This document shows, piece by piece, positions 2,917 to 62,369 of a DNA stretch of 64,000 nt. The position numbers and the translations under genes were made by a program. Position 1 is the stretch's first letter, and every line of letters starts with the position of its first letter. This DNA comes from Candidatus Omnitrophota bacterium. Lineage in GTDB: Bacteria > Omnitrophota > Gorgyraeia > Zapsychrales > Fredricksoniimonadaceae. Where the stretch lies: assembly GCA_015233675.1 (NCBI GenBank), contig JADFXH010000002.1, positions 78,794 to 142,793 of the forward strand, in the 5' to 3' direction. Below the pieces are notes generated by a model. That model had not been told where the DNA came from. It made no database searches and saw nothing but the letters and a program-made list of their open reading frames with translations.

Positions 2917-2951
2917 TGGTTTGGATTTGAAATTTCTGAGGGGATTAAAGG

Positions 2952-3800: not shown

Positions 3801-3829
3801 ATGGTTATCCTTTAAGAAAGGAATTTTAA

Positions 3830-5332
3830 GTGAAGAAAGTTTTGTTAATAAATCCTCCACGTAATCATTATTCAAATTCTAATCAGCTGGTAATCGGACT
3901 TCCACTGGGGCTTATGAATTTGGCAAAGTACCTACAGAGGCATTCAATATCGGTATCTATTTTAGATTGCCTGGTTGGTTCTTTTGAGGTTCAGCAAAAA
4001 GACAATCATGTAGTACAGGGCATGCCTTTTAATGAACTACAACGCAGAGTTTCTCTTGCAGATCCTGATATTATCGGGATTGCATTCCCTTTTTCGACCC
4101 AATATGATATTTGTGTAGAGACAGTCAAAATTATTAAACAAGTATTGCCCCATGTGCGCATTATCGCAGGTGGTGCCCATGTAACTGTCGCGGCTGAGGA
4201 TCTAATGAGGGCTTCTTCACAAATTGATATATGCGTTATAGGTGAAGGAGAACGAACGCTCTATGAATTAGTGGATAATTATAGCAGTAGGAATAAAAAT
4301 TTTACATCTTTAGACAAAATAAATGGCATTGTTTTCAGAGATGCGCACGGAAACTTGCAGCGCACAAAACCTCGTGAAAATATTATGGATCTCGATGAGC
4401 TGGGCTATCCAGCTTACGATTTGGTAGACATGGAGAAATATCTTCACAACGAATACTCATACGGAAGGCCGCCAGGGTTAGAAAGCGTAAACAGGATCAA
4501 TATGATCACAAGCCGGGGCTGTCCTTTCAATTGCGTATTTTGTTCGATTCATCTTTCCATGGGACGGAAATGGAGATCTCAATCGGCCGAACATGTAGTG
4601 AGCCATATTGAATTTTTGGTAAAGAACTTTGGTGTTAAATATTTTCATTTTGAAGACGATAATTTATCTTGTGATGTTAACAGATTTGACAGGATAATGG
4701 ATATGATTGTTGAATGGGGTATTAAGATAAATTGGGATAACCAAAATGGGATGCGAGCTGACAGATGGACCTATGAACGTCTTTTAAAAGCAAAAAAAAG
4801 CGGATGTTCGCTGTTAAATATTGCAATAGAAAGTGGAAATCAGGAAGTATTAGATCTTATTATTGGGAAAAAGTTAAAATTAAAAGATGTGCTCACAACT
4901 GTGAAGATGGCTAAAAAAGTGGGCATTCCGGTTTTTGCCTTCTTTGTTATTGGATTCCCGGGGGAAACTATTGCTCAGATGAAACAAACCCTTAACTTTT
5001 CGATTAAATTACGTATATTATATAACGCGTCTTCTGCGGTCATGGTTGCAACGCCATTTTTGGGCACGCGTCTTCATAAAATATGTGTAGAAAATGGTTA
5101 TATTACAAAACCAATTGATCCTCAGAATATTGCTAATGCAACGCTTGATAATACGGATTCAATAATTCGCACACCTTTATTTGGGCCTGAAGATATAAAG
5201 TTGCTTTCAATGTGGCATAGCAGGCAAATGTCTATGGCTCGCTATGCCAGGTTATTATTTAATCCAAAAGTGGCTTTTAGGAAGACTGTTAACAAATGTC
5301 AGCATTTTTTAAAAGGGCGGGATTTTGTTTAA
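3830..5332 (+). CDS. B12-binding-domain radical SAM protein
   Basis: N-terminal cobalamin-binding-like Rossmann region (IIGIAFPFST...RIIAGGAHVT...VIGEGE) followed by the radical-SAM cluster motif SRGCPFNCVFCS (CxxxCxxC). GTG start. Confidence 0.85.
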   Translation: MKKVLLINPPRNHYSNSNQLVIGLPLGLMNLAKYLQRHSISVSILDCLVGSFEVQQKDNHVVQGMPFNELQRRVSLADPDIIGIAFPFSTQYDICVETVKIIKQVLPHVRIIAGGAHVTVAAEDLMRASSQIDICVIGEGERTLYELVDNYSSRNKNFTSLDKINGIVFRDAHGNLQRTKPRENIMDLDELGYPAYDLVDMEKYLHNEYSYGRPPGLESVNRINMITSRGCPFNCVFCSIHLSMGRKWRSQSAEHVVSHIEFLVKNFGVKYFHFEDDNLSCDVNRFDRIMDMIVEWGIKINWDNQNGMRADRWTYERLLKAKKSGCSLLNIAIESGNQEVLDLIIGKKLKLKDVLTTVKMAKKVGIPVFAFFVIGFPGETIAQMKQTLNFSIKLRILYNASSAVMVATPFLGTRLHKICVENGYITKPIDPQNIANATLDNTDSIIRTPLFGPEDIKLLSMWHSRQMSMARYARLLFNPKVAFRKTVNKCQHFLKGRDFV

Positions 5333-19917: not shown

Positions 19918-20322
19918 ATGGGGTTTATTCTTGTTATTCACGTTATAGTTTGTATTCTCTTGGTGATTGCTATTTTAATGCAGGCAGGCCGCGGCGGCGG
20001 CTTGACCGAGACATTTCAATCCGCGGAGTCCATGTTCGGGACGCAGACCAATGTGTTTATGGTCCGTTTCACGACGATATTGGCAGTGATTTTTCTGTCA
20101 ACTTCATTGATTTTAGCGTTTAATTCTTCTAAAGTTGATAAGTCTTTGATGGCCAATAAAAAACTTTTATCTACGGTTCCAAAACAGGCAGCCGTTCCCA
20201 AAGCAACTGATGAGGGCGACGTTCAAATTAAGGTTGAGTCCCCCAAGCCAATGACGCCGGCAGAAACAGCCATCCCAAGCAAAAATGTTCCGGTTAGCCC
20301 CGTGACGAATGCCAAGAAATAA
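19918..20322 (+). CDS. secG: Preprotein translocase subunit SecG (with a Pro/Lys-rich C-terminal extension)
   Basis: Two-TM SecG core: VIHVIVCILLVIAILMQAGRGGGL ... FMVRFTTILAVIFLSTSLILAF. It sits in the conserved pgk-tpiA-secG position. Confidence 0.85.
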   Translation: MGFILVIHVIVCILLVIAILMQAGRGGGLTETFQSAESMFGTQTNVFMVRFTTILAVIFLSTSLILAFNSSKVDKSLMANKKLLSTVPKQAAVPKATDEGDVQIKVESPKPMTPAETAIPSKNVPVSPVTNAKK

Positions 20323-22024
20323 AGTCCAGTTACTTTTTGTTCTGTGTTCTTTGTGTATTTGCTCTGCTGTTCAAGGAGCATATGCCGCAACCAGCCGCTT
20401 CGGCGGCAGCCTTGTCCTTGCCACTTCTTCTGATCCTAAGACGTTTAACGATATCGTCTCAACCGATGTCAACAGCGCAACGGTTACATCCTTGATTTTT
20501 GAAGGATTGACTACGGCGGATCCTTTTACTTTAAAAGTTATTCCTAATTTAGCTAAATCCTGGGATGTCAGTCCCGATGGACTTCAATGGACTTTCCATT
20601 TAAGGGAAGACGTCAGATGGTCTGACGGGGTGAGTTTTGGCGCGGATGATGTGGTGTTTACTTTTAATGGCCTGATTTATAATCCGGATATCCCTTCCTC
20701 GTCTAAGGATGTTTTGACCGTTGACGGTAAACCGTTGAAAGTTGAAAAAATAGATGAACATACGGTATGTTTTACCTTGCCGGTAAAATTTGCGCCGTTT
20801 TTAAGGGCCATGGGGCAGACGATCTTGCCCCAACATTGTTTGTTTCAAGCTGTAAAACAAAAGAAATTCTCTTTTACCTGGGGCATTGATACTCCGCCGG
20901 AGCAGATTGTAGGCACCGGCCCCTTTATGCTAAGCGAGTATCATCCGGGTGAGCGTTTGATATTCAAGCGCAATCCCCGCTACTGGAAAAGATCCCCGCA
21001 AGGTGAAGCTCTTCCTTATTTGGACCAAGTGATTTATTTAATCATTCCGGACGCTCAAGCCCAGCTGTTAAAATTTATAGATGGTGAACTTGATGCCGCG
21101 TCAGTGAGCGGCAGCGAGTATCCTTTACTTAAGCCTTTGGAGGAGCAAAAGAATTTTCATATTCACGAGGCCGGAGCTAATTATGACAGTAATTTTGTGA
21201 CTTTTAACCAAAACGTCTCTATTAATCCTAAAACCCGCCGGCCTTTTGTAGATCCTGTCAAGTTGTCCTGGTTTGCCAATTTAAAATTCCGTCGGGCTAT
21301 TGCGCATGCGATTGACAAAAGGAAAATTATAGAGATCCTCAATAATGGTTTCGGCCAACCCCAGAACGGGCCTATGAGCCCTAGCAGCGGGTTTTTTTAT
21401 GATCCTGATGTGACGGTTTATGATTATAATCTGGAAAAAGCGAGGATGATCCTGCAACAGGCCGGTTTTAAATATCGCCGGGGGCATGAGACGCTCGAGG
21501 ATCCTTCGGGACATCCGGTAGAATTTAATTTATATACCGCGAATGCCAATACCGCTGGGCGTGAGCAAATGGCGGCTATCATACGATCGGATTTGGGGGC
21601 AATCGGCATGAAGGTCAATTTAGTGCCGGTAGAATTCAATACTTTGGTTAATAAATTGATGTCTTCTTTTGATTGGGATATGGTCATGATAGGATTAAGC
21701 GGCGGCGTGGAGCCGCATTTTGGTCAAAACGTCTGGAAGTCTTCCGGCGGTCTGCATTTATGGGCCCCTCGTCAGGATAAGCCCGCAACTGCCTGGGAGG
21801 CGCGCATGGACGAAATTTATGATCTGGGGGCTCAGGAGCTGGATGAAAATAAGCGCAAAGTCTTATATGACGAATTTCAGCGTATCGTGGCAGACCAACT
21901 GCCGGTGATTTATACGGTTTTAAACATCGACATGTACGCCGTGCGTAATAAATTTGGAAACCTAAAACCCACCGTCAACGGAGGGGCGTTTCATAATATC
22001 GAGGAGATTTATATAAAGAGATAG
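20309..22024 (+). CDS. ABC transporter substrate-binding protein, family 5 (peptide/nickel type)
   Basis: N-terminal signal peptide (LLFVLCSLCICSAVQGAYA). The protein has SBP_bac_5-like length and sits directly upstream of the two permease and two ATPase genes. Confidence 0.85.
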   Translation: MPRNKVQLLFVLCSLCICSAVQGAYAATSRFGGSLVLATSSDPKTFNDIVSTDVNSATVTSLIFEGLTTADPFTLKVIPNLAKSWDVSPDGLQWTFHLREDVRWSDGVSFGADDVVFTFNGLIYNPDIPSSSKDVLTVDGKPLKVEKIDEHTVCFTLPVKFAPFLRAMGQTILPQHCLFQAVKQKKFSFTWGIDTPPEQIVGTGPFMLSEYHPGERLIFKRNPRYWKRSPQGEALPYLDQVIYLIIPDAQAQLLKFIDGELDAASVSGSEYPLLKPLEEQKNFHIHEAGANYDSNFVTFNQNVSINPKTRRPFVDPVKLSWFANLKFRRAIAHAIDKRKIIEILNNGFGQPQNGPMSPSSGFFYDPDVTVYDYNLEKARMILQQAGFKYRRGHETLEDPSGHPVEFNLYTANANTAGREQMAAIIRSDLGAIGMKVNLVPVEFNTLVNKLMSSFDWDMVMIGLSGGVEPHFGQNVWKSSGGLHLWAPRQDKPATAWEARMDEIYDLGAQELDENKRKVLYDEFQRIVADQLPVIYTVLNIDMYAVRNKFGNLKPTVNGGAFHNIEEIYIKR

Positions 22025-22032
22025 AAGAATAA

Positions 22033-22052
22033 GGGCCGAATAGATTCGGTCC
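22033..22052 (+). terminator. Weak hairpin after the SBP gene (possible attenuator or partial terminator)
   Basis: gggccgaa-taga-ttcggtcc forms an 8-bp stem with one G-U pair, followed by gttaaagtttt. It begins 9 nt after the stop codon. Confidence 0.3.
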
Positions 22053-22086
22053 GTTAAAGTTTTGAGCAAGTAAAAGATTTTATTTC

Positions 22087-22125
22087 CCCCTCTTTTTTAT
22101 AAAGAGGGGTTAGGGGAGTTTAAGG
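22087..22125. repeat. Left terminal inverted repeat of the DUF559 cassette
   Basis: cccctcttttttataaagaggggttaggggagtttaagg. The outer end is itself a 9-bp-stem hairpin (cccctcttt / aaagagggg). Confidence 0.9.
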
Positions 22126-22133
22126 TTGAAGCA

Positions 22134-22511
22134 ATGAAGACTTTTAACCGTGAAGCAACAAAAGAAAAACGGAAAGAACTAAGGAAGAATCAAACAGACG
22201 CGGAAAGAGTGCTTTGGAATATATTAAGGAACAAACAAATGGGCGGGTATAAATTTTTTAGGCAATACGGCATAGGATCTTATATTGCTGACTTTTATTG
22301 TCCGTTATTAAAAGTGGTTATAGAAGTGGATGGCGGGCAGCATTATAGTGAAGAAGCAGTGGCGCACGATCGTAAAAGGGAAGAATTCTTGAAGGGGGCA
22401 GGTATAAGAGTGATCCGGTTTAATAATTTGGATATTTTAAAGAATATAGAGGGAGTTTTCGAATGCATTCAAAAAGAACTCTCCCTAAACTCCCCTAACC
22501 CCTCTTTATAA
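22134..22511 (+). CDS. DUF559 domain protein (Vsr/restriction-endonuclease-like fold)
   Basis: TDAERVLWNILRNK, YKFFRQYGIGSYIADFYCP, KVVIEVDGGQH, DRKREEFLKGAGIRVIRFNN. The last ~9 codons (SLNSPNPSL) and the stop codon are encoded by the right TIR. Confidence 0.9.
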   Translation: MKTFNREATKEKRKELRKNQTDAERVLWNILRNKQMGGYKFFRQYGIGSYIADFYCPLLKVVIEVDGGQHYSEEAVAHDRKREEFLKGAGIRVIRFNNLDILKNIEGVFECIQKELSLNSPNPSL

Positions 22512-22521
22512 GAAAGAGGGG
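22483..22521. repeat. Right terminal inverted repeat of the DUF559 cassette
   Basis: ccctaaactcccctaacccctctttataagaaagagggg. Its reverse complement differs from the left TIR at 2 of 39 positions. The TAA stop of the ORF lies in the hairpin loop. Confidence 0.9.
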
Positions 22522-22557
22522 AAAGAATTTGATACACAAAGAGGTGGAATTCACTTG

Positions 22558-23535
22558 ATGATGCTAAAGCACGTTTTTTATCGTCTATGTTCCACTATGC
22601 TGCTGTTGCTGGCGGTCAGCTTTTTTACTTTCTGGCTGATGCACGCAACTCCGGGGAATTTTTTTGACAGCTTGCGTTTAAATCCTCAAATTTCTCAGGA
22701 GACGGTCGCCCGTTATGAAAAACTTTATCACCTTAATGATCCGCTGCTTGTTCAGTACGGACATTGGATTATTAATATCTTACACGGAGAGTGGGGGTAT
22801 TCTTTTTATTATAATGTACCCGTTACCCATGTCTTAGGCGGCCGTTTGTTTAACACCTTTATTTTGTCTTTTACCAGTTTGCTTTTGACTTGGGGCGCGG
22901 CCATTCCGCTTGGTATATGGGCGGCACTCAGGCGCAATCAATGGGTTGACCGGACCCTTTCTGTTTTTTCCTTTGCCGCTTTTTCCACACCGAGTTTCTT
23001 TTTGGCTGTGCTGGTTTTATATGCGGCCAGCCGCTGGGGAGTTCTCCCTTTAGGCGGCATGCATAGCCCCCATTATGATTCCATGACCATCATCGAGAAA
23101 ATTAGGGACACCGCGCTTCATCTGATAATTCCGGCTGGAGTCCTTTCCTTATCCAGCATGGCTTCTTTGCAGAGGATCATGCGCGGTAATATGTTGGGTG
23201 TTTTACGCCAGCAGTATATTTTGGCGGCCCGCGCTAAAGGGTTGCCGGAAGGTGTGGTTATTTATCGTCATGCCCTGCGCAATGCGTTTAATCCCCTGGT
23301 CACTCTTTTAGGGTATGAATTTGCTTCTCTTTTAAGCGGGGCCGCTTTGATAGAAATTGTTTGCTCCTGGCCTGGACTGGGCTCTTTGCTTCTAACTGCG
23401 GTACGGTCCAAGGATGTTTATTTGGTGATGAGCAGCACCTTATTAGCGGGAGTTCTTTTGATCGTTGGCAATATTTTGGCTGATATTTTGTTGACCTTGG
23501 TTGATCCGCGTATCCGTTACGGGGCAAGAAAGTAG
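22558..23535 (+). CDS. ABC transporter permease (DppB/OppB-like)
   Basis: Six-TM BPD_transp_1 protein with the EAA-type loop AARAKGLPEGVVIYRHALRNA. SD gaggtgg lies 11 nt upstream of ATG 22558. Confidence 0.9.
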   Translation: MMLKHVFYRLCSTMLLLLAVSFFTFWLMHATPGNFFDSLRLNPQISQETVARYEKLYHLNDPLLVQYGHWIINILHGEWGYSFYYNVPVTHVLGGRLFNTFILSFTSLLLTWGAAIPLGIWAALRRNQWVDRTLSVFSFAAFSTPSFFLAVLVLYAASRWGVLPLGGMHSPHYDSMTIIEKIRDTALHLIIPAGVLSLSSMASLQRIMRGNMLGVLRQQYILAARAKGLPEGVVIYRHALRNAFNPLVTLLGYEFASLLSGAALIEIVCSWPGLGSLLLTAVRSKDVYLVMSSTLLAGVLLIVGNILADILLTLVDPRIRYGARK

Positions 23536-26098: not shown

Positions 26099-28263
26099 GC
26101 GAACGGTTTTGGAAAAATCTTAGTACGGCTCTTGGTTGGCTGTCCATTGGCATGCTTTTTGGCCTGGTCACTTTTACTTCCAGCCTTGAAATTAAGGATT
26201 TGGATCTATGGCTGCATTTGAGAATGGGCTATTGGATTTGTCACAACGGGTTTGTGCCAAATTATGATGTTCTTTCCTGCACCATTTCCGGAAAACCATG
26301 GGTCAATCATGAGTGGTTATTTCAAGTCTTGGTTTATCTGGTACAAAAAACTCATGGTTTCAATGGGCTTATTTCCATGCAGTCTTTTGTGGTGGCACTG
26401 ACATTCTTGGTGTTGTTGTTCTTGGGCTATAGCCGGGACCGCCAGTTACTGACGGTGATTTCCCTTTTAATGGTCCTGATGGTCTATCAAAGCCGCTTTA
26501 CCATCCGTCCGGATATTTTCAGCCTTTTATTTTTTGTGATCGATATTTATTTGCTTTCATTGCACTTAAATAAACGCTGGGCGCTTTATGCCCTGGTGAT
26601 TATACAGATACTGTGGTCGAATATGCACGGCTTTTTCTTTTTCGGACCGGTATTAGCGGGCGTTGGTATCCTTTCAGAGTTTATCAAACGCCGGCTGCCC
26701 TTACCCTATGAATGGAATACGGCAGGTCGTTTAAACGATGAGGAATATAATTCGCTGAAGAGAATTTTTCCGCTTTTGATCCTGGCTTCCTGTGTTAATC
26801 CTCTGACATTTAAGGGGGCGTGGTATCCGTTAAGTGTTTTTTTCCATTTAGGGGGGGATACTAAAATATTTTTTAACAATATTGTCGAGTTACAAAGACC
26901 GTTCACTTCAGGTACGGTTTTTACCGAAAGATACCTTTATTATAAAATCCTGATTATTGTTTCCGCCGTTAGTTTTGTCTTTAACCGCCGTAAAGTTGAC
27001 ATCAGCAGTCTTTTGATATGGGCTCTTTTTTTAGGGTTTTCTTTAGTGGCCATCCGTAATCTGATTTATTTTGCGGCAGCAGCATATATGGTTTTGATGG
27101 TTAATGTGATTTCTATCTCCTGGGAAAACCTGGTTCCTTTGCGTTTTACTTCCTTTAAATTCAAGAATATTACAGGGATCGCCTGTAAGTTATTGCTTAT
27201 GCTTTGGATGTTAAACTTTAGCATGGGAATGATGAGCAACGGGTATTTCGATTTTGATACATATTACCGTAAAAGCGAATTTTTTGGCGTTTCTAAGCGG
27301 GTTTATCCTTACAAGGCCGTGGATTTTCTCCTGCTAGAGAAAATTAAAGGTAACTTTTTTAATGATTTTAACTCTGGAGCCTATTTAATCGGCAGGGTGA
27401 GCCCGAATATTAAAGTCTTTATCGACGGCCGCACAGAAGTTTACGGGGCCAATTTTTTTGAGACTTACCAGAAAATATGGCAGGCAGGTAATGCTAAAAT
27501 TTTTACCGAATTCGAACGAAAACATAACATCACTGGGGCTTTTTTGAATAATTCACATCAGCAGATCCCCAGGGGAGCCCTTAAAATGTTTCATTCTTTT
27601 AAAAATTGGTCCATTGTTTATTTGGATGATGACGCGGTCATTTTTTTAAAACAGACACCTTACAATAAACCCTTCATTGACCGGTTGTCCGTAGATTTGT
27701 CCAAGTGGAAGCCCAAGCCTATGGATCTTTTAAGATTGGGGACAAAACGTGTTGATCCGTTTCCTTTTACAAGCAGGGCCTATATCTTGGAAATACTTGG
27801 GGCTGACGAGGCGGCTATCAATGAGTCTAAAGAAGCCCTTCGGGTGGCGCCTGATTGCCCGTCAGCCTACAATATGATGGGTAAAATTTATAACAAACGT
27901 AAGGACTATAAAAAAGCATTTGAATGTTATCGGTTGGGAACCATGTATTCAGGTGAAACGCAGGCGCGCTTAGGTTTAGCCCAAGCTTATGAGAATTTAA
28001 ATGAGTACAATGAAGCGATCGGCCAGTATCAAAGGGTGATTGATGTTTCTCCCAAAGATGTTCAGGGGTATTTTGGTTTGGCACGGACCTATGCCGAAGC
28101 AGGTCAGGATAAAAAAGCTTTAGACTTAGTTGCCCAAGCTCCTAAATTGGGATTAGAGGATAAGGTTGATGTTCAGAAAATTCATGATATTATAAATAAA
28201 AGAAAAAACAAACAGGGCGCCCTGAAGCATCCTTTATTAAGGAAGGGCGTTGGCTCGACCTAA
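26095..28263 (+). CDS. Polytopic membrane protein with a C-terminal TPR domain (function unknown; glycosyltransferase-C-like topology)
   Basis: About 12 or more hydrophobic helices in the first ~400 aa. The C-terminal ~170 aa carries TPR-like repeats (AYNMMGKIYNKRKDYKKAFECY, LGLAQAYENLNEYNEAIGQYQRVI, YFGLARTYAEAGQDKKALDL). ATGA overlap with the upstream ATPase gene. Confidence 0.6.
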   Translation: MSERFWKNLSTALGWLSIGMLFGLVTFTSSLEIKDLDLWLHLRMGYWICHNGFVPNYDVLSCTISGKPWVNHEWLFQVLVYLVQKTHGFNGLISMQSFVVALTFLVLLFLGYSRDRQLLTVISLLMVLMVYQSRFTIRPDIFSLLFFVIDIYLLSLHLNKRWALYALVIIQILWSNMHGFFFFGPVLAGVGILSEFIKRRLPLPYEWNTAGRLNDEEYNSLKRIFPLLILASCVNPLTFKGAWYPLSVFFHLGGDTKIFFNNIVELQRPFTSGTVFTERYLYYKILIIVSAVSFVFNRRKVDISSLLIWALFLGFSLVAIRNLIYFAAAAYMVLMVNVISISWENLVPLRFTSFKFKNITGIACKLLLMLWMLNFSMGMMSNGYFDFDTYYRKSEFFGVSKRVYPYKAVDFLLLEKIKGNFFNDFNSGAYLIGRVSPNIKVFIDGRTEVYGANFFETYQKIWQAGNAKIFTEFERKHNITGAFLNNSHQQIPRGALKMFHSFKNWSIVYLDDDAVIFLKQTPYNKPFIDRLSVDLSKWKPKPMDLLRLGTKRVDPFPFTSRAYILEILGADEAAINESKEALRVAPDCPSAYNMMGKIYNKRKDYKKAFECYRLGTMYSGETQARLGLAQAYENLNEYNEAIGQYQRVIDVSPKDVQGYFGLARTYAEAGQDKKALDLVAQAPKLGLEDKVDVQKIHDIINKRKNKQGALKHPLLRKGVGST

Positions 28264-28312
28264 TCAATGGGAAGGCTTAGTGGAATTATAAGGAAGAAAG
28301 CGATTTAATACA

Positions 28313-29518
28313 ATGCGAGATGCGTTGACGTTTATTTTAGCCGGGGGTAAAGGCGAACGTTTAGACCCATTGACCCGTGACAGGGCCAAGCCCGCGGTGC
28401 CTTTCGGGGGGATTTATCGCATTGTTGATTTTTCACTTTCTAATTGTGTCAATTCCGGACTTCGCCGTATTTTTCTTTTGACCCAGTACAAATCATTTTC
28501 CCTGCAGCGGCATATCCTGGAGGGTTGGAATATCTATTCTAATCAATTAGGGGAATTTATCGATGTTGTTCCGGCTCAGCAGCGCATTTCCAGCGACTGG
28601 TACCGCGGCACTGCGGATGCCATTTATCAGAATTTGAACATGGTGGGTGATTATGATCCTAAAAGGGTGTTAATTTTAGCGGGAGATCATGTTTATAAAA
28701 TGGATTATCGCCGGTTGATGGAATTCCATTTGAGTAAGGGCGCAGACATGTCGGTGGCATGCATCACGATGCCTAAAAATGATTCTATCCATTTTGGGGT
28801 CGTGGAAGTCAATAAACAGAACATGGTTATTGGATTTCAGGAAAAGCCTGAAAAGCCAAAGACCATTCCTTCCAGTCCGGGAGAGATTTTTGGTTCCATG
28901 GGGATTTATTTATTTAATACGGATATACTTAAAAAAGAACTAGTTGCAGACGCATCAAAGATTGATTCTGATCATGATTTTGGAAAGAATATTATTCCTC
29001 AGATGGTGGCTAAAAAATTAAAAGTGTACGCCTATGATTTCGCTAGGGAAAACGAAGCATCATCATACTGGAGGGACATCGGTACTCGTGATTCGTATTA
29101 TCAGGCGAACATGGACCTTTGCGGGGCGAAGCCTAAATTTAATTTGTATGACAAGGCATGGCCTTTGCGCACCTATCATCATCATTACCCTCCGCTGAGG
29201 GTTTATACGACCGGCAAGACATCGGGCACCATTGTTGATTCACTTGTTGCAGGAGGATGTGTTTTGGAAAGCTGTCATATTGATCACTCGGTTGTTTCTA
29301 ACAATGTGATGATCAGAGACGGGGTTATGATAAAGAATTCTGTGATTATGGATAGTGTTACAATCGGCAAGGGAGCCCATATCCAGGGAGCTATAATTGA
29401 TAAAGATGTGGATATTCCCGCAGGAACAAAAATTGGTTTTGATCCGGCCTTGGACCGCCAGCGTTTTGTGCTGACCACATCCGGTATAGCTATTGTTGCA
29501 AAAAAAACGTCTATATGA
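28313..29518 (+). CDS. glgC: Glucose-1-phosphate adenylyltransferase
   Basis: LAGGKGERLDPLTRDRAKPAVPFGG, WYRGTADA, and a C-terminal left-handed beta-helix region. Confidence 0.9.
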   Translation: MRDALTFILAGGKGERLDPLTRDRAKPAVPFGGIYRIVDFSLSNCVNSGLRRIFLLTQYKSFSLQRHILEGWNIYSNQLGEFIDVVPAQQRISSDWYRGTADAIYQNLNMVGDYDPKRVLILAGDHVYKMDYRRLMEFHLSKGADMSVACITMPKNDSIHFGVVEVNKQNMVIGFQEKPEKPKTIPSSPGEIFGSMGIYLFNTDILKKELVADASKIDSDHDFGKNIIPQMVAKKLKVYAYDFARENEASSYWRDIGTRDSYYQANMDLCGAKPKFNLYDKAWPLRTYHHHYPPLRVYTTGKTSGTIVDSLVAGGCVLESCHIDHSVVSNNVMIRDGVMIKNSVIMDSVTIGKGAHIQGAIIDKDVDIPAGTKIGFDPALDRQRFVLTTSGIAIVAKKTSI

Positions 29519-29531
29519 TATTCTTTCGCCT

Positions 29532-30722
29532 GTGATTATTCAGCCTAAAATTCGAGGATTTATCTGCGTCACTGCCCATCCGGCGGGCTGTGCTGCTCAC
29601 GTGGCAGAGCAAATCCAATATGTGCAATCGCAAAGTCCTATTATTGATGGTCCCAAAAAAGTGTTGGTGATCGGGGCGTCAACGGGTTACGGCTTAAGCT
29701 CGCGCATTACTGCTGCTTTTGCCTGCGGGGCTGCTACGATGGGAGTCTTTTTTGAAAAGCCGTCTGACGGGCCCCGAACGGCAACACCCGGCTGGTATAA
29801 CTCTGCGGCCTTTGAAGCTCAAGCGAAAAAAGCGGGCGTATATTCCCGCCATTTTAATGGTGATGCCTTCTCTGATCAAATGCGGCGGGATGTTTGCAAG
29901 GCGATCAAAGAGGATTGGGGACAGGCTGACTGTGTTATTTATTCATTAGCTTCTGCCCGAAGGGTTGACCCTAAAACCGGGTACATTTATAAATCGGCCA
30001 TTAAGCCTAAGGGCTCCTCTTACAGTAATAAGACGATTGATTTTGAAAATACTCAGGTGGTCCCGATCCTTTTGGAAGCGGCCTCACAGCAAGATGTCGA
30101 AGAAACAGTTAAAGTCATGGGAGGAGAAGACTGGCAACTGTGGATTGAGGCTTTGACTGCCGAGAACTTGCTGGCACCCAAATCAGTAACGATGGCGTAT
30201 TCTTACATCGGTCCGGATGTGACAAAGCCGGTTTACCGTAACGGAACCCTGGGGGCTGCAAAAGACCATCTTGAGGCTACGGCTCAACGGCTCGACCAAT
30301 TAATGCGCAAACATGGAGGTCGTGCTTTGGTGTCCGTTAACAAAGCGCTTGTGACTCAGAGTTCTTCGGCTATCCCTTTTATTCCTTTGTATTTTGTCAT
30401 TTTGATGAAGGTTATGAAACAAAAGGGGTTGAATGAATATTGTATTCATCAAATGTACCGTCTTTTTAGCGAGCGACTTTACGACGGGCGGCCTCTGTCT
30501 AAAATTTCTGTTGACGATCATGGGCGTGTGCGCATAGATGATTGGGAGATGCGAAGTGACGTCCAAGAAGAAGTCAGGCATCTCTGGGGACAGGTTGATA
30601 GCGGGAACCTTCCTAAAATCGCTGACATTCAGGGTTACAATGAGGATTTTTTAAAACTTTTCGGTTTTGGCTTTCAAGGAGTAGACTATAATGCCGATGT
30701 CAATCCCGAAGTTCCTTTATAA
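29532..30722 (+). CDS. fabV: Trans-2-enoyl-CoA/ACP reductase, FabV/Ter family
   Basis: (M)IIQPKIRGFICVTAHPAGC matches the canonical FabV/Ter N-terminus, followed by VIGASTGYGLSSRI. GTG 29532 is preferred over the TTG at 29493 in the track. Confidence 0.85.
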   Translation: MIIQPKIRGFICVTAHPAGCAAHVAEQIQYVQSQSPIIDGPKKVLVIGASTGYGLSSRITAAFACGAATMGVFFEKPSDGPRTATPGWYNSAAFEAQAKKAGVYSRHFNGDAFSDQMRRDVCKAIKEDWGQADCVIYSLASARRVDPKTGYIYKSAIKPKGSSYSNKTIDFENTQVVPILLEAASQQDVEETVKVMGGEDWQLWIEALTAENLLAPKSVTMAYSYIGPDVTKPVYRNGTLGAAKDHLEATAQRLDQLMRKHGGRALVSVNKALVTQSSSAIPFIPLYFVILMKVMKQKGLNEYCIHQMYRLFSERLYDGRPLSKISVDDHGRVRIDDWEMRSDVQEEVRHLWGQVDSGNLPKIADIQGYNEDFLKLFGFGFQGVDYNADVNPEVPL

Positions 30723-35604: not shown

Positions 35605-38600
35605 ATGAAAAGATCTCCATTAATTCATATTGTAATTTTTGCGGCTTTTTTGGTAAATGGTTTTGGGCCTTTGCCAGCCGTCCGGGCAGATAACTCAACG
35701 GTGTTTACCCTTGGTGAATTGCATTTGTCTGCTGTGGGGGCAATGGTCCATTTAAGCCCTCAATTTAATCCTCCGATTTTAAAAGGGATTAAGGTACATA
35801 CGGATGATCCATTTCGTTTTGATTTTATTTTAGATCAAGGAAATGCCCCCTCTTTTGTTAAAGAGGGGGATGGGGGGAGTTTGAAACAAGAAGCCGCCAA
35901 ACTGATCAAATACTTCCTTGCCAGCCTGACAATTCCCGAAAAAGATTTGTGGGTAAACCTGTCTCCGTATGAGAAAAACAGGATCGTCCCTCAAAGTTTT
36001 GGCTTAACCGAAATGGGCCGTGATTTATTAGCTGAGGATTATATGCTCAAGCAGATCACGGCTAGTTTGATTTATCCGGAAGATAAAATCGGTAAAAAGT
36101 TTTGGGGGAGGATATATGAAGAGGCAGCAAAGAAATTTGGGACAACCAATATTCCGGTGAACACATTTAACAAAGTTTGGATAGTGCCAGAGAAAGCGGT
36201 AGTGTATGAGAATGCGAAGGCGGGTACGGCGTATGTAGTGGAAAGCAGATTAAAGGTAATGCTTGAGCAGGATTATTTGGCATTAGAAAAACATGCTAAA
36301 GATGATTCCCTCCCCCTTGCGGGAAGGGCAAGGGAGGGGGGCCTAAAAGCACCCCAGGGAAACCGCCTTACACCAAACAGAGACCTCAACGCTCTAGGCT
36401 CTCAAATCGTCCGTGAGATTGTTATTCCCGAACTAGCAAAAGAAGTCAACGAGGGCAAGAATTTTGCCCAGTTGCGCCAAGTCTATAATTCTTTAATTCT
36501 TGCCATATGGTATAAAAAGAAAATCAAAGACAGCATCCTGACGCAAGTTTATGCAAATCAAAATAAGGTTAAAGGTGTGGAATATGCTCAGAGCATTTTA
36601 CCTCAGGGGAGCAACCAATCACCTGAAACCAGTGACGTTGAACTTATCTATCAACGTTACCTGCAAGCTTTCAAGAAAGGCGTTTATAATTACATCAAAG
36701 AAGAGCAGGATTTGGTCACCCAAAGTATTATATCGAGAAAATATTTCTCAGGCGGTTTCGGATTTGTTGATGTGGCTATGCGTGTTGAAACTACTTCAGC
36801 GATGCCGGTGGCTGTTCCTTCTAATATGGTTGTTGTTGATATGGCTATGTCGGTAATATCTCCCAATGACGGGGCGCCTTTAAAATCAGATACAGCAAAT
36901 CCACTATGGAGTCCGGCGATTTCCTATCAAGATATTATTAAGGATAAAAATGAAATATTTAAATCTATAATTGCGAATGAGCCTGTTAAGCCTTATGACA
37001 CGACCGTCTCTTTAATTAAAAGATTGGCAACGGATGGTTATAAAATGGGGGTGGGTTCTTCTAGCAGCAGGGCATTACAATATTTAGATTCTTTCGGCAT
37101 CAAGGATGATTTTAGATCAATTATTGACGGCGAGATGGTTCTCAGAGGAGAGGTCCCGGGAAAACCATCGGGTGAATTTTTTAAAGCCGTTGCCGGCAAG
37201 GCAGGGATTGACCCGGTAGATACCATTGTTTTTGGAGATGCCGTTGCCGATGTGAAGTCAGCTAAAGCAGGGGGTTTTGGATTGATCGTTGCTTTGGCTC
37301 GTAACGAAAATGCCCAACTGCTTAAAGATGCGGGAGCAGATCGGGTCCTTCCTGATATCGGTAATTTAAATATTGAAACAATGAAAGCTTGGCTCAAAGA
37401 AAAACAGCCAAATGCGGTGTTTAAGGGCGCTATTTTTGATGTGGATGGGGTCATAGCAAACTCAGGGAAGCAGCATTTTGATTCCTGGCAGCAAGTGCTC
37501 AACAAGTATCTTCAATACAGGCAAGGTGAAAGTTACAAAGAATTTACTATGAAAGATTATGAAACATATTTTGCCGGCCGGACGGGCGATGTCGTCGTGA
37601 AAGAATTTTTGGATTCCCGCGGCATACAGTTACCAGCACGCAGTACAGCAGAGAAAAATATGTTGCAAGTGGCCGTCCCTAAGTTTGCTGGGGTCGGCGG
37701 TAAATATGTTTATAATAGTTTTATATTCCAGGCCAAGATCCATCCGGAAGATAAAAAGGAAACGACTGTCATTGCCGGAAGGGTAGAAGCCAGGGTAGGT
37801 GGAGTGAGCCAGGTGGTGTTTTTTCAAAAGGGGCCTGGTGGTAAATGGTATCCGATCAAAGGTGCCCCTGTTTTTGAAAGTTCTGAGGACCCTTCTTTGC
37901 AAAAGATTGGTGATAAATGGGTCTTGTCGGTGGTCAAGGTCGAAGACACTGGGGAAAAGTTGGAGAGTGGGATCCCTAAACTCGTTTGGCAAGAGAAATT
38001 TTTTCAATTTGACACTCTTAATGATCTTAATCCTAAGGAACCGATTGCTCAGGGGCCATTATGGATGAAGGATATTCATTTGGTAGAATTAGAGGATTCC
38101 CGAATTATGATCATGACTCGTCCGCAGGGCGGGGAGTATAATGGGGGGAGAATCGGGTATGTTATCGTTGAGAATTTTAAAAAGTTTGTTGAATTGGGAC
38201 AAGGCGGTAAAAAAGAAAGTGATCTGGCGAAAATGATGGAGAATGGGAAAGTCCTTGAAGGGTTGTTCACTAAGGATCAATGGGGCGGGGCGAACGCTCT
38301 TTATCTTTTGGAGAACGGGAAGATCGGCGTCTTGGGCCACATTGCGCAACGTAATAAGGAAGGAAATAGAGAATATTCTCCTATGACTTTTGAATTTGAT
38401 CCCGATACAGGGGAGGTTAGTAATTTTAAAATAATAGGTACCTGGAAAAGTTTTGAGGAATTGTTGAAGGCTCAGCATATCTCCATTCCTGTCAAGGTTC
38501 TGGATGAGAATAAACCGGAGGACCTTCGTGAGGTGCTGTTTCCCACTGCTTTGTTAGTGGGCAAGGATGGGAAATGTTTTTTGTGTCTTGGGGCATGTGA

Positions 38601-38907
38601 TTCTACGACAGCAATGGCTCAAATTCCGTATCCATTTTCGAGTCCCATCAAGAACTCCCTTCCTTCATTAGTATTGTCAACAGTGGAAAAATCATTTGCG
38701 ATAAACGCAAATAACAAATATGGCGGTATAGACTTGACTTCCAATAACATGAATTTACAGACACAAAATGCGGGTAAGGGGATCAAATTTCATCTTGACC
38801 CTTCACAGTTAACGCAACTTAAAAACGCCTCTGGTTTTGTGCCGGTGATTATCAATATTCAACCAATGACAAATTTGCGGGGATTCTTGGAACTCGGGAA
38901 TGAATGA
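35605..38907 (+). CDS. Secreted 1100-aa mosaic protein: unknown N-terminal domain, rearranged HAD (beta-PGM-like) unit, DUF1861 beta-propeller, GGIDL C-terminal module
   Basis: Signal peptide IVIFAAFLVNGFGPLPAVRA. HAD motifs are GVGSSSS, GKPSGE and FGDAVADV, followed by FDVDGVIANS. DUF1861 hallmarks are IAGRVEAR, MKDIHLVELEDSRIMIMTRPQG, WGGAN, GVLGHIA, FEFDPDTGE. C-terminal YGGIDLTSNNMNLQ...FVPVIINIQPM. Confidence 0.7.
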   Translation: MKRSPLIHIVIFAAFLVNGFGPLPAVRADNSTVFTLGELHLSAVGAMVHLSPQFNPPILKGIKVHTDDPFRFDFILDQGNAPSFVKEGDGGSLKQEAAKLIKYFLASLTIPEKDLWVNLSPYEKNRIVPQSFGLTEMGRDLLAEDYMLKQITASLIYPEDKIGKKFWGRIYEEAAKKFGTTNIPVNTFNKVWIVPEKAVVYENAKAGTAYVVESRLKVMLEQDYLALEKHAKDDSLPLAGRAREGGLKAPQGNRLTPNRDLNALGSQIVREIVIPELAKEVNEGKNFAQLRQVYNSLILAIWYKKKIKDSILTQVYANQNKVKGVEYAQSILPQGSNQSPETSDVELIYQRYLQAFKKGVYNYIKEEQDLVTQSIISRKYFSGGFGFVDVAMRVETTSAMPVAVPSNMVVVDMAMSVISPNDGAPLKSDTANPLWSPAISYQDIIKDKNEIFKSIIANEPVKPYDTTVSLIKRLATDGYKMGVGSSSSRALQYLDSFGIKDDFRSIIDGEMVLRGEVPGKPSGEFFKAVAGKAGIDPVDTIVFGDAVADVKSAKAGGFGLIVALARNENAQLLKDAGADRVLPDIGNLNIETMKAWLKEKQPNAVFKGAIFDVDGVIANSGKQHFDSWQQVLNKYLQYRQGESYKEFTMKDYETYFAGRTGDVVVKEFLDSRGIQLPARSTAEKNMLQVAVPKFAGVGGKYVYNSFIFQAKIHPEDKKETTVIAGRVEARVGGVSQVVFFQKGPGGKWYPIKGAPVFESSEDPSLQKIGDKWVLSVVKVEDTGEKLESGIPKLVWQEKFFQFDTLNDLNPKEPIAQGPLWMKDIHLVELEDSRIMIMTRPQGGEYNGGRIGYVIVENFKKFVELGQGGKKESDLAKMMENGKVLEGLFTKDQWGGANALYLLENGKIGVLGHIAQRNKEGNREYSPMTFEFDPDTGEVSNFKIIGTWKSFEELLKAQHISIPVKVLDENKPEDLREVLFPTALLVGKDGKCFLCLGACDSTTAMAQIPYPFSSPIKNSLPSLVLSTVEKSFAINANNKYGGIDLTSNNMNLQTQNAGKGIKFHLDPSQLTQLKNASGFVPVIINIQPMTNLRGFLELGNE
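35846..35886. repeat. Solo copy of the DUF559-cassette TIR module, in frame inside the CDS
   Basis: ccccctcttt-tgtt-aaagaggggg is a perfect 10-bp stem at 35846-35869, followed by atggggggagttt. It shares the blocks ccccctctttt / aaagagggg / ggggagttt, in the same order, with TIR 22086-22121. It encodes APSFVKEGDGGS. Confidence 0.75.
36308..36340. repeat. Second GC-rich palindrome, in frame inside the CDS
   Basis: ccctcccccttgc-gggaagg-gcaagggaggggg forms a 13-bp stem with 1 mismatch and 1 G-U pair. It encodes SLPLAGRAREGG. Confidence 0.7.
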
Positions 38908-59468: not shown

Positions 59469-60281
59469 CTAATTAGAATGTTTTTCTGTTGGTAAATGGG
59501 GGTGGGCATGGGTGAATCCGGTATGACTGTGCCCATGTATATGGATAAGATTGTTTTCTTGTAACAAAATCTTGTCTTCCAGTATTTTTTCCGCAGGGCC
59601 CTGTTTAATAATTCTTTTGTCTTTGCCAAAAAGGTAAACAGTGTCTGCTATCTCACCGACAATATGCAGATCATGAGTTGCCGTGATAATCGTTTTGCCT
59701 TTTTGTTTTGCTTTAACAATAAAATCAACAATATGCCTGACCGTCAAGGGATCAAGCCCCGCGGTTGGTTCATCAAAGATAATAATTTCGGGATCAATGG
59801 CTAAAACAGAGGCGATAGCTACTTTACGTTTTTCGCCTATGCTTAATTGATGAGGGATCCTTTCTAATAAATGGCCGATCTCCAGAATTTCCAGGACTTG
59901 GGCAAGTCTATCTGCGATTATCTTATCATTAAACCCTAACTGCAAAGGCCCAAAAACAATGTCCTCTTTTACCGATGGACAAAACAGTTGGATATCCGCG
60001 TTTTGAAAAACAAGGCCTACCTTACTCCTGAAAAGATGGGCGTTTTTTTCATCACTTAAATAATCTTCGTTTAATGTTTGGCCCAAAGCGATCACTTCTC
60101 CGCGGTCCGGGAATATCAACCCATCCAAAATATGCAAGAGGGTCGATTTTCCTGTGCCGTTAGATCCAATCAGAGCGACCTGTTCGCCTTTGCGGATGGT
60201 CATATTAATATCTCTAAGGGCAGGGTATTTACCAAGATAAGAATACTGCACATCTGTTAATTTAAAAATTCTATCGTTCAT
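59469..60281 (-). CDS. cbiO: ECF transporter ATPase (CbiO/NikO-like) with a His-rich C-terminal tail
   Basis: Walker A GSNGTGKST, signature LSIGEKRKV, Walker B IIFDEPTAGLD. The tail HIHGHSHTGFTHAHPHLPTEKHSN is encoded at 59472-59543. Confidence 0.85.
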   Translation of the reverse strand: MNDRIFKLTDVQYSYLGKYPALRDINMTIRKGEQVALIGSNGTGKSTLLHILDGLIFPDRGEVIALGQTLNEDYLSDEKNAHLFRSKVGLVFQNADIQLFCPSVKEDIVFGPLQLGFNDKIIADRLAQVLEILEIGHLLERIPHQLSIGEKRKVAIASVLAIDPEIIIFDEPTAGLDPLTVRHIVDFIVKAKQKGKTIITATHDLHIVGEIADTVYLFGKDKRIIKQGPAEKILEDKILLQENNLIHIHGHSHTGFTHAHPHLPTEKHSN

Positions 60282-61132
60282 TTTCTAAGCTCCATATAAA
60301 AAAGGCAGGCACTGACAATGACCGAGCCTATCAGGCAGAACCAGTCTTTTAATTGGGGATGAAATTTTTCTAAAAGCCGCGGCTCACCGCTATAGCCTCT
60401 CGAAAGCATGGCTTTGTAAACATCTTCACTCAACTGGGTTGATTTGTTGTATGTATTGGCAATATTCCAGGCAACAATATGCTGGCCTTTGCCGTGATGG
60501 GAGACAATACCTACCCGGCTTTTGATGGCAATGAAAATATTCTCAATGATAACAGCAAAAAGGTAAAGGTATCGGTAGCACATGGACACCGTTAAAACAA
60601 ATACCTGCGGGACTTTAAAATTACGTAAGACCTTCAATAATTCACCGTGCCTGGTCGTTAAGGACAACAAAACAACCAGGGACACGGATGTCGCAATGCG
60701 TGCGACAAATAAAACAGCTCCGTCTAATCCCTGACGGGTAATGATAAACTTGATCCCTAAAGCATGAAAAGACGCGATTGCCTGGCCCCCGGAAACAAAA
60801 CTAAATAAGGACGGGATAACAATGCACAAAGAAAATATGGGAATAAATACCCATGTCCTGACCAGGAAAAAAATGATCGGCACTCCGGAACAAAAAGCCA
60901 ATGTCAAACATAAAAGATACAGTAAGGCGATAAAAATTGCGCTCTTTAAACAAACGGCCGTAATAAGAAAAAATAAAAACACAATTGTTTTTATCCTTGG
61001 CTCTAAAGATTGCAGAAAGCCTTTATTTACGGCAAACTCTTCATAAAGAGTCGCGTTTTTTACAAATGACAGAGCGCTTAAGGCTGAGCGTTCTAAGAAA
61101 TTGCCATTTTTTATAGATGTGGTTCTAATCAT
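60278..61132 (-). CDS. cbiQ: ECF transporter transmembrane (T) component, CbiQ/NikQ-like
   Basis: Polytopic 284-aa protein between the M/N and O genes, with 4-nt and 8-nt overlaps to its neighbours. CbiQ-family position and size. Confidence 0.8.
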   Translation of the reverse strand: MIRTTSIKNGNFLERSALSALSFVKNATLYEEFAVNKGFLQSLEPRIKTIVFLFFLITAVCLKSAIFIALLYLLCLTLAFCSGVPIIFFLVRTWVFIPIFSLCIVIPSLFSFVSGGQAIASFHALGIKFIITRQGLDGAVLFVARIATSVSLVVLLSLTTRHGELLKVLRNFKVPQVFVLTVSMCYRYLYLFAVIIENIFIAIKSRVGIVSHHGKGQHIVAWNIANTYNKSTQLSEDVYKAMLSRGYSGEPRLLEKFHPQLKDWFCLIGSVIVSACLFYMELRK

Positions 61133-61460
61133 TGTCTTTCACAAATATTTTTCCTAATAACAGGATAATGCCGATAATTAATGCTATCCCGGTGATAGCG
61201 GCTATGATATAAGCAAGACTTAAATGTGCAAGCCCTTTTGCTTCCCAGCCTTTAAAGGCATAGTCCGGCATAGGCGCTTTCCATAATTCTGACATTTGAG
61301 CCAGCCCTTGAGGCAGATAACCTGCCATTTTTTGAAGTTCGCCCGTACCCCATTCTCCCCACGCTGGGCAGGCCTTAAAACAGGCGGGAAAGATTAATCC
61401 TAAAGGGGAAAGAAAAACTAAAGCAGCAAGTCCGAAACAGAGTTTTTTGATGAGGGTCAT
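61125..61460 (-). CDS. Small membrane component, NikN/PDGLE-domain-like
   Basis: N- and C-terminal TM helices flank AWGEWG...GYLPQGL...LWKAPMPDY. I associate this pattern with PDGLE/NikN partners of NikM rather than with CbiN. Confidence 0.55.
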   Translation of the reverse strand: MTLIKKLCFGLAALVFLSPLGLIFPACFKACPAWGEWGTGELQKMAGYLPQGLAQMSELWKAPMPDYAFKGWEAKGLAHLSLAYIIAAITGIALIIGIILLLGKIFVKDND

Positions 61461-62137
61461 GATTTATCACTTTTGTAAAAAACAAAATTTTGTTTCTGCA
61501 AATATTTTACGACGAGGGTAGTAACGATGAGCTCGACCCATCCGAATAGTAACAAGTACTCTGCGGCCATTGCAGGGACCGCGACGTTTATCCTGTAAGG
61601 ACAGTAAAGTGCTTGTCCGTTAGAAGCATGAAATAAGAGAGGCTGAATACCTAACTCAACACCTGCCATAAATGCAGCAAAACAAATTCCTATATATGCG
61701 CCTATTCCTGCTGCGACGATACATCTTTTGGACCCTATCGGATGGCCGGCGCAAATTAATTTGTAAGTATAATAACCTGTGAAGGGCATAAGAAAAGCCA
61801 TATTAAAACAATTAGCACCGATAGCAGTAATTCCTCCATCGCCAAATAGTAGAGCCTGAATAACTAAAGCAACGGTAATGGCGATACATGCTGCCCATGG
61901 ACCTAAAAGAATGGCGATGAGAACGCCTCCCACCGCATGACCTGTCGAGCCGCCGGGGATGGGAACGTTAAACATCATAATAACAAAACTAAATGCCGCG
62001 CCAATGGCTAAAAACGGCACTTGCCGCGCTTTAAGAGTTTTTTTAACAATCTTTGATGCCGCTGTCCAGATCGGGACCATCACGACCGCAAAAACCCCGC
62101 AAGTTTGTGGGCTTAAATATCCATCCGGTATATGCAT
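61457..62137 (-). CDS. cbiM: Ni/Co ECF transporter substrate-capture component CbiM/NikM
   Basis: Starts MHIPDGYLSP, the metal-binding N-terminus that must be residue 1, so ATG 62137 is used rather than 62263. GGSTGHAVGG motif. Confidence 0.85.
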   Translation of the reverse strand: MHIPDGYLSPQTCGVFAVVMVPIWTAASKIVKKTLKARQVPFLAIGAAFSFVIMMFNVPIPGGSTGHAVGGVLIAILLGPWAACIAITVALVIQALLFGDGGITAIGANCFNMAFLMPFTGYYTYKLICAGHPIGSKRCIVAAGIGAYIGICFAAFMAGVELGIQPLLFHASNGQALYCPYRINVAVPAMAAEYLLLFGWVELIVTTLVVKYLQKQNFVFYKSDKS

Positions 62138-62369
62138 AGACCGCCTCGTAATTAACGTGTGCTTTGAATTCAGGAAAGTATTATATCCGAATTTTAGGAA
62201 TTTAGTGATCCAAAAGTTTAAGAGACCGGAAATTGGTCCAAACCGCACTTTAATAAGTTGCATTATTTTTAGGGTTTATGTAAAATAAAAGAAATAAAAA
62301 ATTTTAATGGCGTTGGCCCAACCTAATTAATAGAAAAACTGATGGAATTTTAAGGAAGGAGATCGAGAT

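Follow-up and report, generated by a model that had tools for sequence, protein, structure and literature searches.

Introduction

Repeats of the PIT, BoxC and TMECO kind are found in Escherichia coli and cyanobacteria, and potential intrastrand triplex (PIT) elements were reportedly described by Hoyne and Maher in 2000; they are related to the purine motifs of ITxF class II. To our knowledge BoxC/PIT elements have been catalogued since the 1990s, and we know of no function, partner protein or mode of spread for them, nor of any role for the DUF559 (YcjD) proteins, a very common bacterial family. Here, we describe a module of this kind in a 64,000-nucleotide (nt) stretch of DNA from a Candidatus Omnitrophota bacterium (assembly GCA_015233675.1, contig JADFXH010000002.1, positions 78,794–142,793), referred to below as the window. 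The 37-nt palindromic segment at window positions 35846–35882 (plus strand), which lies in frame inside a gene for a protein of 1100 residues, is in our assessment, with a probability of about 0.75, a solo copy of a three-block repeated element that would spread as DNA, of which an inverted pair brackets a DUF559 gene in the same window, and for which DUF559 is the putative cognate structure-specific nuclease.

A survey of 5246 prokaryotic genomes and plasmids has yielded a catalogue of intrastrand triplex motifs (Holder et al. 2015; PMC4666352). According to that work, TMECO is the element earlier named BoxC and then PIT, and follows the pattern CCCTCNCCC-N3-6-GGGNGAGGG-N3-GGGNGAGGG; type A elements have TTA as second loop, pairs of elements are inverted, and every element of E. 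coli K-12 lies between genes. Other described repeats of similar behavior, the Rickettsia palindromic elements (RPEs), are about 150 bp long, comprise ten families and are confined to Rickettsia (PMC10969869).

A solo module shares its blocks with the ends of a DUF559 cassette

The module is built from a pyrimidine arm, a complementary purine arm and a mirrored purine arm. In the solo copy, these are the pyrimidine arm CCCCCTCTTT (35846–35855), the first loop TGTT (35856–35859), the purine arm AAAGAGGGGG (35860–35869), the linker ATG (35870–35872) and the mirrored tail GGGGGAGTTT (35873–35882), all on the plus strand; written out as an oligonucleotide, the module is CCCCCTCTTTTGTTAAAGAGGGGGATGGGGGGAGTTT. 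The first two blocks form a perfect 10-bp stem with a 4-nt loop at 35846–35869, and the tail block GGGGAGTTT mirrors the purine arm, in the solo module as in the other copies. The host gene (35605–38907, plus strand) is read through the module, which codes for residues 81–92, APSFVKEGDGGS (A81-PSFVKEGDGGS-92, followed by L93), and the open reading frame (ORF) continues 3' of it into Pfam matches to HAD (residues 443–586) and DUF1861 (residues 681–1012). Since these domains follow downstream in the same frame, the module leaves the frame intact, and there is no stop codon in any of its three blocks in any frame on either strand.

Three matches to the pattern CCCCTCTTT-N3-8-AAAGAGGGG are present in the window (22087, 22499 and 35847), compared with 0.00 expected from 100 shuffles, and the second half of the module, AAAGAGGGG-N0-6-GGGGAGTTT, likewise has three (22101 on the plus, 22487 on the minus and 35860 on the plus strand) with 0 expected. 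The two copies other than the solo one flank an ORF at 22134–22511 (plus strand) for a protein of 125 residues, which belongs to the DUF559 family (Pfam PF04480) of Vsr-like PD-(D/E)XK nucleases. The left module (22086–22121, plus strand) reads CCCCCTCTTT-tttat-AAAGAGGGG-TTA-GGGGAGTTT, the right module (22487–22522, minus strand) is its inverted copy, and both have their tails toward the gene, which is thereby enclosed by a 42-nt inverted repeat of 93% identity (22084–22125 and 22483–22524). The solo copy has one extra C, G and G across the three blocks relative to the cassette copies, with the register kept. A sequence-only reading of this DNA had picked out the perfect stem, its translation in frame and the block sharing with the cassette ends; all three are borne out by the direct reading, the translation with its downstream Pfam domains, and the copy counts.

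The ORF is a full-length DUF559 member, scoring above the Pfam gathering threshold (E = 6.6e-35; 119.7 bits compared with a cut-off of 20.6; profile positions 4–108 of 109), and the closest solved structure is the ‘endonuclease-like protein’ 3HRL (E = 5.6e-18). The right module overlaps the 3' end of the ORF and contains its final codons, the stop codon falling in the loop of the hairpin. The cassette is part of an ABC transporter operon (window 20309–23535), where it separates the gene for a solute-binding protein from the first of the permease genes; in E. coli, REP elements have a comparable position between malE and malF.

It is the repetition of the sequence, and not the stem, that makes the segment significant. 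The hairpin energy of the solo module, −10.8 kcal/mol as DNA, is moderately unusual (z = −2.57), with 5 of 200 shuffles folding equally well, and is on its own weak evidence. These shuffles, together with the consideration that a 10-bp stem in a coding region could slow ribosomes, would speak for a locally selected signal (a pause in transcription or translation, an mRNA stabilizer or a functional peptide) with a coincidental likeness to the DUF559 cassette. Such an origin is hardly credible, given that a pattern specified by 25 nt occurs three times in the window with 0 expected and at more than 100 unrelated loci elsewhere, that homologues of the host protein lack the peptide, and that the whole window yields zero Rfam matches at gathering thresholds; furthermore, Holder et al. 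(PMC4666352) cite earlier work in which PIT elements acted neither as promoters nor as terminators. A local signal and a chance resemblance were both excluded on the grounds of the repetition and of the homologues without the peptide.

The third block co-varies with the purine arm

For ITxF class II motifs, block 2 has to be the Watson–Crick antiparallel complement of block 1, and block 3 has to mirror block 2 (G.GC, A.AT and T.AT triplets), with stems of 6–15 nt, loops of 1–6 nt and at most one mismatch. A purpose-written triplex-motif finder (stem 8, at most one mismatch) returned from the window only 22087–22120 (plus), 22488–22521 (minus) and 35846–35880 (plus), each with 0 mismatches, and nothing from 30 shuffles. 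The solo copy has a perfect 8-nt three-block core by the finder and 10 perfect triplets by eye, and all three window copies are, by sequence, motifs of a purine-motif class II intrastrand triplex (Holder et al. 2015). On these sequence grounds we assign the module to the purine-motif intrastrand triplex motifs of the PIT/BoxC/TMECO kind, with a third strand that would be able to fold back on the hairpin.

The mirror relation of the cassette modules (AAAGAGGGG / TTA / GGGGAGTTT) is kept in variants that flank relatives of the DUF559 gene, i.e., AAAGGAGGG / TTA / GGGAGGATT, AAAGGGAGG / TTA / GGAGGGATTT, AAGGGGGAGA / TTA / AGAGGGGGTT and AAGGGGAGGG / TTA / GGGTGGGGTT. Opposite an A of the arm, the tail has A or T, and opposite a G it has G; these are the rules of antiparallel purine-motif triplexes (G.GC, A.AT, T.AT). 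The mean mirror score is 0.856 and falls to 0.749 ± 0.015 if each arm type is given the tails of others. An exact mirror tail is present in 54 of 78 unique instances with an asymmetric purine core, compared with 13.8 ± 3.2 after permutation (maximum 24 in 2000 permutations), and the mirror relation holds in 15 of 20 distinct cores. As a mirror repeat cannot be produced by copying and is not read by a symmetric DNA-binding dimer, the co-variation points to a structural constraint.

Two other accounts of the tail were tried and rejected. A direct repeat of the purine arm is at odds with 36 mirror-only compared with 2 direct-only instances, and a mere Shine-Dalgarno sequence for DUF559 leaves unexplained both the retention of the tail in downstream and solo copies and its co-variation with the arm.

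The module is an insert in a variable loop of the host protein

The host protein has an N-terminus resembling a signal peptide, an uncharacterized N-terminal domain of ~400 residues, a HAD hydrolase domain and DUF1861, as assigned from the ORF list, its translation, Pfam and homologues. The N-terminal ~400 residues (window 35605–36810) have no Pfam match; 1488 homologues were found, the best of them 68% identical and those that are named being from Omnitrophica/Omnitrophota. The domain forms a large family with several paralogues per genome, fused to varied C-terminal enzymes, and its AlphaFold model has no match in the PDB at E ≤ 0.001.

Alignment of 120 of the 1488 homologues shows a conserved FDFILDxGD, then a hypervariable stretch whose length varies from 0 to over 40 residues, then a conserved LKxExxKLIKYF. 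The commonest state of the variable site is the short, unrelated S-QLSNDQ, and only two of the aligned proteins, P0049 (SPSFFKEGVGGSL) and P0086 (SPSLVQRGGQGEL), resemble the window segment, with the peptides PSFFKEGVGGS and PSLVQRGGQGE. Their DNA contains the same module at the same codon position, as TCTCCCTCTTTTTTTAAAGAGGGGGTTGGGGGGAGTTT in one (L001) and, more decayed, as TCCCCCTCTTTAGTACAACGAGGGGGTCAGGGGGAATT in the other (L002). Module boundaries and phase are identical in the three carriers, with 12 codons between GD/GN and LKQEA. In rankings of the 120 proteins across 278 well-aligned columns, however, no carrier comes higher than 34th among the relatives of another (range 34th to 101st), and the nearest relatives of the window protein have other sequences at the variable site. 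Judged by identity, the three carriers do not appear to form a clade. In the AlphaFold model of the domain (built from 65 sequences; mean predicted local distance difference test, pLDDT, of 76), residues 81–92 are modeled as coil between a strand (72–77) and a helix (91–109), and block 81–90 has a mean pLDDT of 57, compared with 95 and 88 for the adjoining blocks.

Taken together, the alignment, the carrier DNA and the model indicate that residues 81–92 are a lineage-specific in-frame insert in a hypervariable loop modeled with low confidence, and that the solo copy contributes 12 extra residues to a loop of a probably secreted protein. This is what the sequence-only reading had predicted, namely an indel of about 12 residues coinciding with the palindrome, and none of the 120 homologues conserves the peptide without having the palindrome in its DNA. 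The in-frame insertion proposed there stands as well; the mirrored tail, a second module in the same gene and the hot-spot character of the site, described next, had gone unseen.

The second, decayed triplex-type module lies at 36308–36341 (plus strand), reads CCCTCCCCC-TTGC-GGGAAGGG-CAA-GGGAGGGGGG and encodes about SLPLAGRAREGG. A single G>A change in the purine arm distinguishes it from the intact module of a homologue (P0001, L204), where the counterpart is located at the first variable site (site 1) as TCCCTCCCCC-TTGC-GGGGAGGG-CTA-GGGAGGGGG. The second site is also hypervariable in the family, and residues 236–256 have pLDDT values below 50. Among the 120 homologues, other peptides recur at site 1, i.e., VIARSEATKQS, VIPAKAGI, SSPNxLIGD, ETQNFASL, DAINRVST and LPLAGRAREGDL, and the DNA behind such segments falls into three groups: a plain hairpin, ATTCCCGC-GAAA-GCGGGAAT (P0014), decayed palindromes (P0040, P0033), and the triplex-type module of P0001. 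Across family members, at least five different palindromic repeat families code for peptides in the two variable loops, and the variable site is a hot spot common to several palindromic repeat families besides the module.

The several paralogues per genome, the agreement of three members of the family in module boundaries and phase, and the presence of the second-site type of module (peptide LPLAGRAREG) at site 1 of other paralogues would fit gene conversion or recombination between paralogues of the N-terminal domain, or inheritance from an ancestral paralogue, in place of a fresh insertion. We consider such an origin of the segment improbable: the three carriers are only distantly related to one another, the copies they contain are unequally decayed and have different loops and linkers, and the site is occupied in other members by at least five unrelated repeat-coded peptides, which call for repeated independent entry or a selection filter.

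Two further observations concern the gene and its surroundings. The C-terminal ~60 residues of the host protein (window 38725–38904), NKYGGIDLTSNNMNLQTQ...FVPVIINIQPMTNLRGFLEL, have no Pfam match and may act as a signal for sorting or anchoring. Between 1 and 59 kb, almost all genes lie on the plus strand, with positive GC skew, and are followed by four consecutive minus-strand genes (59469–62263) where the skew is slightly negative.

Solo copies occur in many genomes, some of them in housekeeping genes

Public genomes, one per species, were scanned with the pattern CCCTCTTT-N3-8-AAAGAGGGG-N0-6-GGGGAGTT, which was found in at least 119 stretches; the stretches listed hold 138 copies, to which the counts below refer. 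Together with the two additional copies in the window, these show that the solo module is far from single. The titles of the matched genomes name Omnitrophota, Patescibacteria, Nitrospirota, Bacillota, Elusimicrobiota, Delta- and Gammaproteobacteria, Kapaibacterium, Cloacimonadales, Armatimonadota and others, and include the isolate Methylobacter psychrophilus; among the matches listed, several genomes each give at least five loci. Conservation stops at the module edges, with TCC before the module, a weak AA after it and nothing beyond. Among the matches listed, solo copies favor outward-facing dimers and full palindromes, an arrangement unlike that of the cassette.

Stop-free frames of at least 200 codons span 42 of the 138 copies (~30%), and the genes concerned include some for housekeeping enzymes. 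According to Pfam matches, the module lies at codon 360 of a DNA polymerase I, between exonuclease domains (L015), inside the thumb-domain match of a PolX (L009), in a linker of PurH (L094), at codon 176 of ComEC, near the DUF4131 region (L099), and at codon 232 of a seryl-tRNA synthetase (L100). In the latter enzyme, residues 224–256 form an insert of 33 residues at a place where the T. thermophilus counterpart has 3. The analogy with the Rickettsia elements drawn in the sequence-only reading is thus upheld by the copies in long frames.

Viral contigs were considered as a source. Only three of them carry the pattern and none encodes a close DUF559 relative, the best being 40% identical; phages were rejected as vectors on account of this near absence of both module and gene.

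Most close relatives of the window DUF559 gene are flanked by triplex-type modules

Only 5 of the 138 copies adjoin a DUF559 gene, and the association was therefore tested from the side of the gene. For this purpose, the 80 closest metagenomic relatives of the window DUF559 were collected (45–86% identity), 75 of which have both flanks readable. With the motif strictly defined, at least one lies within about 130 nt of the gene in 71 of the 75, and on both sides in 41, whereas of 622 control segments, taken 400 nt or more away from the gene, 9 (1.4%) contain a motif. The palindrome had been linked to the nuclease gene of the window alone; flanking by the module or a variant of it in 71 of 75 relatives makes that link a good deal stronger than was claimed. 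Upstream motifs are on the gene strand in 53 of 79 cases and downstream motifs on the opposite strand in 59 of 76, so that both tails point toward the gene, as in the window. The 80 loci represent 68 contexts that do not align with each other, and two of them (L122 and L124) have only the gene and the downstream module in common with the window (about 22124–22550). The stop codon lies in the downstream hairpin loop in the window and in three further loci (L122–L124). DUF559 similarity is higher within the same module class (the observed difference is reached in 0 of 1000 and 6 of 1000 permutations). Two loci contain tandem arrays with a unit of DUF559 gene plus three modules (L068 at 200–1700, with a 555-nt period, and L031 at 1380–2880), which suggests local amplification of the cassette.

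A related arrangement is found in E. coli K-12, where the DUF559 gene ycjD (L202 7196–7420; NC_000913.3 about 1351195–1351420, minus strand) ends in ...CACCCTCTCCC-TGA-AAGAGCGAGGGGG, with the stop codon inside a degenerate triplex motif. On its 3' side follow a duplicated fragment of the gene's own 3' end and then, about 165 nt downstream, an intact BoxC, CCCTCGCCCC-TCT-GGGGAGAGGG-TTA-GGGTGAGGGG. In the searchable literature, DUF559/YcjD is nowhere linked with triplex or BoxC elements, and neither a function of the family nor a DNA target is described; in Holder et al. 2015 (PMC4666352), there is no mention of endonucleases or of DUF559, and the adjacency of ycjD and BoxC is absent from the searchable BoxC literature. 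The flanking triplex-type modules are a candidate target of DUF559.

Proposed mechanism and role of DUF559

In the mechanism we propose, blocks one and two would pair as a hairpin on a single strand, and the third block would fold back antiparallel onto the purine arm, forming G.GC, A.AT and T.AT triplets with the tail in the major groove of the hairpin. Such folding might occur when DNA is transiently single-stranded, e.g., during replication or repair; purine-motif triplexes cannot form in RNA (PMC4666352), and any triplex would therefore be at the DNA level. DUF559, with the fold of a Vsr-like nickase, would recognize or cut the folded module, so that both the module and DUF559 itself are copied elsewhere, in a relation to the module that would be analogous to that of RAYT to REP. 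The element would thus spread as DNA, and insertions into genes would survive only if the frame is kept and the loop is tolerant; at 35846, the element would now be without a role for the host beyond the 12 added residues. To the identification of DUF559 as the mobilizing enzyme we give slightly less than an even chance.

The module family and the insert may be real without DUF559 being the mover, if it is a selfish gene homing into or next to modules, or a host nuclease that processes the triplex or hairpin and for that reason tends to be encoded, and kept, next to it, and the modules spread by another enzyme or by template switching at hairpins in replication. This is in our view unlikely, and it draws on observations some of which at the same time weigh against the mechanism proposed above. 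Most copies are far from a nuclease gene, as the count of 5 in 138 shows, and solo copies prefer an arrangement other than that of the cassette; no target-site duplication of 3 nt or more was detected around the 138 copies (the best 3-mer is found at 8 of 138, compared with a null maximum averaging 7.2). We know of no transposase or homing activity of DUF559. Vsr-like enzymes act as nickases in repair and not as transposases (PMC1189080), and BoxC sites are rearrangement hot spots, which could attract the insertion of any gene (PMC4666352). Against DUF559 as a bystander stand the near-universal and oriented flanking, the downstream stop codon inside the hairpin loop (in E. coli inside the degenerate motif), by which the module is built into the 3' end of the gene, and the co-variation of gene and module class.

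Other points also weigh against the explanation proposed above. The relation between DUF559 similarity and module class could be simple co-descent. Because the cassette is conserved at an orthologous ABC operon (L123; 78% nucleotide identity over 1.2 kb), it is old at its site in the window. A free-standing homing endonuclease gene would interrupt its own recognition site, with intact sites in alleles that lack the gene; no such pair of alleles was found for the cassette, which is present at the orthologous locus too. For the host gene, there is no close orthologue with an empty site, the best homologue being 68% identical, and an empty-site comparison with a syntenic contig (L041) ends before that contig's module, where synteny stops. 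The same contig is titled ‘uncultured Planctomycetales’, and its positions 1–4103 have 72–82% nucleotide identity to window 26355–30466; this mismatch of title and sequence means that submitter taxon labels of metagenome-assembled genomes are unreliable, and the breadth of phyla given above may be somewhat overstated. No act of module movement was observed. For TMECO, the purine-motif triplex has been shown in vitro by circular dichroism and nuclear magnetic resonance and has not been demonstrated in vivo, and no link of BoxC to mobile elements was found in E. coli (PMC4666352).

Significance

New within the searchable literature are the near-universal flanking of a DUF559 clade by the motif, the co-variation supporting a three-strand fold, and the residence of the repeats in frame in genes, essential ones included. 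The locus ties DUF559 to triplex repeats, and the adjacency of ycjD and BoxC makes the questions of what either does testable in E. coli. Furthermore, the colonization of reading frames by palindromic repeats, which has been called unusually frequent in Rickettsia, is far wider and reaches essential enzymes, and repeat insertion emerges as a process by which the loops of a large family of Omnitrophota surface proteins have repeatedly been varied.

As a broader and tentative proposal, in which we place somewhat less trust than in the mobilizing role itself, DUF559 (YcjD-like) proteins might be nucleases specific for DNA triplexes folded from a single strand and might form, together with the modules, a widespread and unrecognized class of mobile or self-propagating elements, which would account for the origin and spread of the BoxC/PIT elements of E. 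coli and cyanobacteria and for in-frame peptide insertions across many bacterial phyla. If this is true, the three-way co-variation constitutes evolutionary evidence that a DNA triplex forms and matters in vivo.

Comparison with known systems

The module has the 9 / 3–6 / 9 / 3 / 9 layout of PIT/BoxC/TMECO elements with a mirrored third block, its cassette copies have TTA as second loop like type A, and it resembles these elements further in its size of about 35–37 nt, its high conservation, its multiple copies and its frequent inverted pairs. It differs from BoxC in the arms (CCCCTCTTT / AAAGAGGGG compared with CCCTCNCCC / GGGNGAGGG). The BoxC/TMECO consensus does not fit the copy at 35846, with arms CCCCCTCTTT / AAAGAGGGGG, and at 36308 it fits the pyrimidine arm CCCTCCCCC and not the purine arm GGGAAGGG. 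Unlike BoxC, which is reported to be always intergenic and without association to mobile elements, the module is found in frame within genes and flanks a nuclease gene, and by record title it occurs in Omnitrophota and many other phyla. The module therefore appears to be a new sequence variant of the PIT/BoxC-type intrastrand triplex repeats.

With the RPEs, the module shares the in-frame residence of a palindromic repeat in unrelated and even essential genes, where the extra peptide is tolerated. It is set apart from them by size and host, having 37 nt, a triplex-type third block, an association with a gene, and genomes titled as many different phyla.

Miniature inverted-repeat transposable elements are likewise small and non-coding, with terminal symmetry, many copies and sometimes an intragenic location; the module is far shorter than these and has neither a target-site duplication nor a related insertion-sequence transposase.

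The likeness to the repetitive extragenic palindromic (REP)/REPIN-RAYT systems lies in the short palindromic repeats with many solo or paired copies and in the single small gene between inverted copies, and extends to the lack of a target-site duplication and, likely, to action on single-stranded DNA. The flanked gene of the module encodes a DUF559 PD-(D/E)XK protein and not an HUH Y1 (IS200/IS605-like) transposase, the module has a mirrored third block, and, whereas REPs are extragenic, it is also found inside genes.

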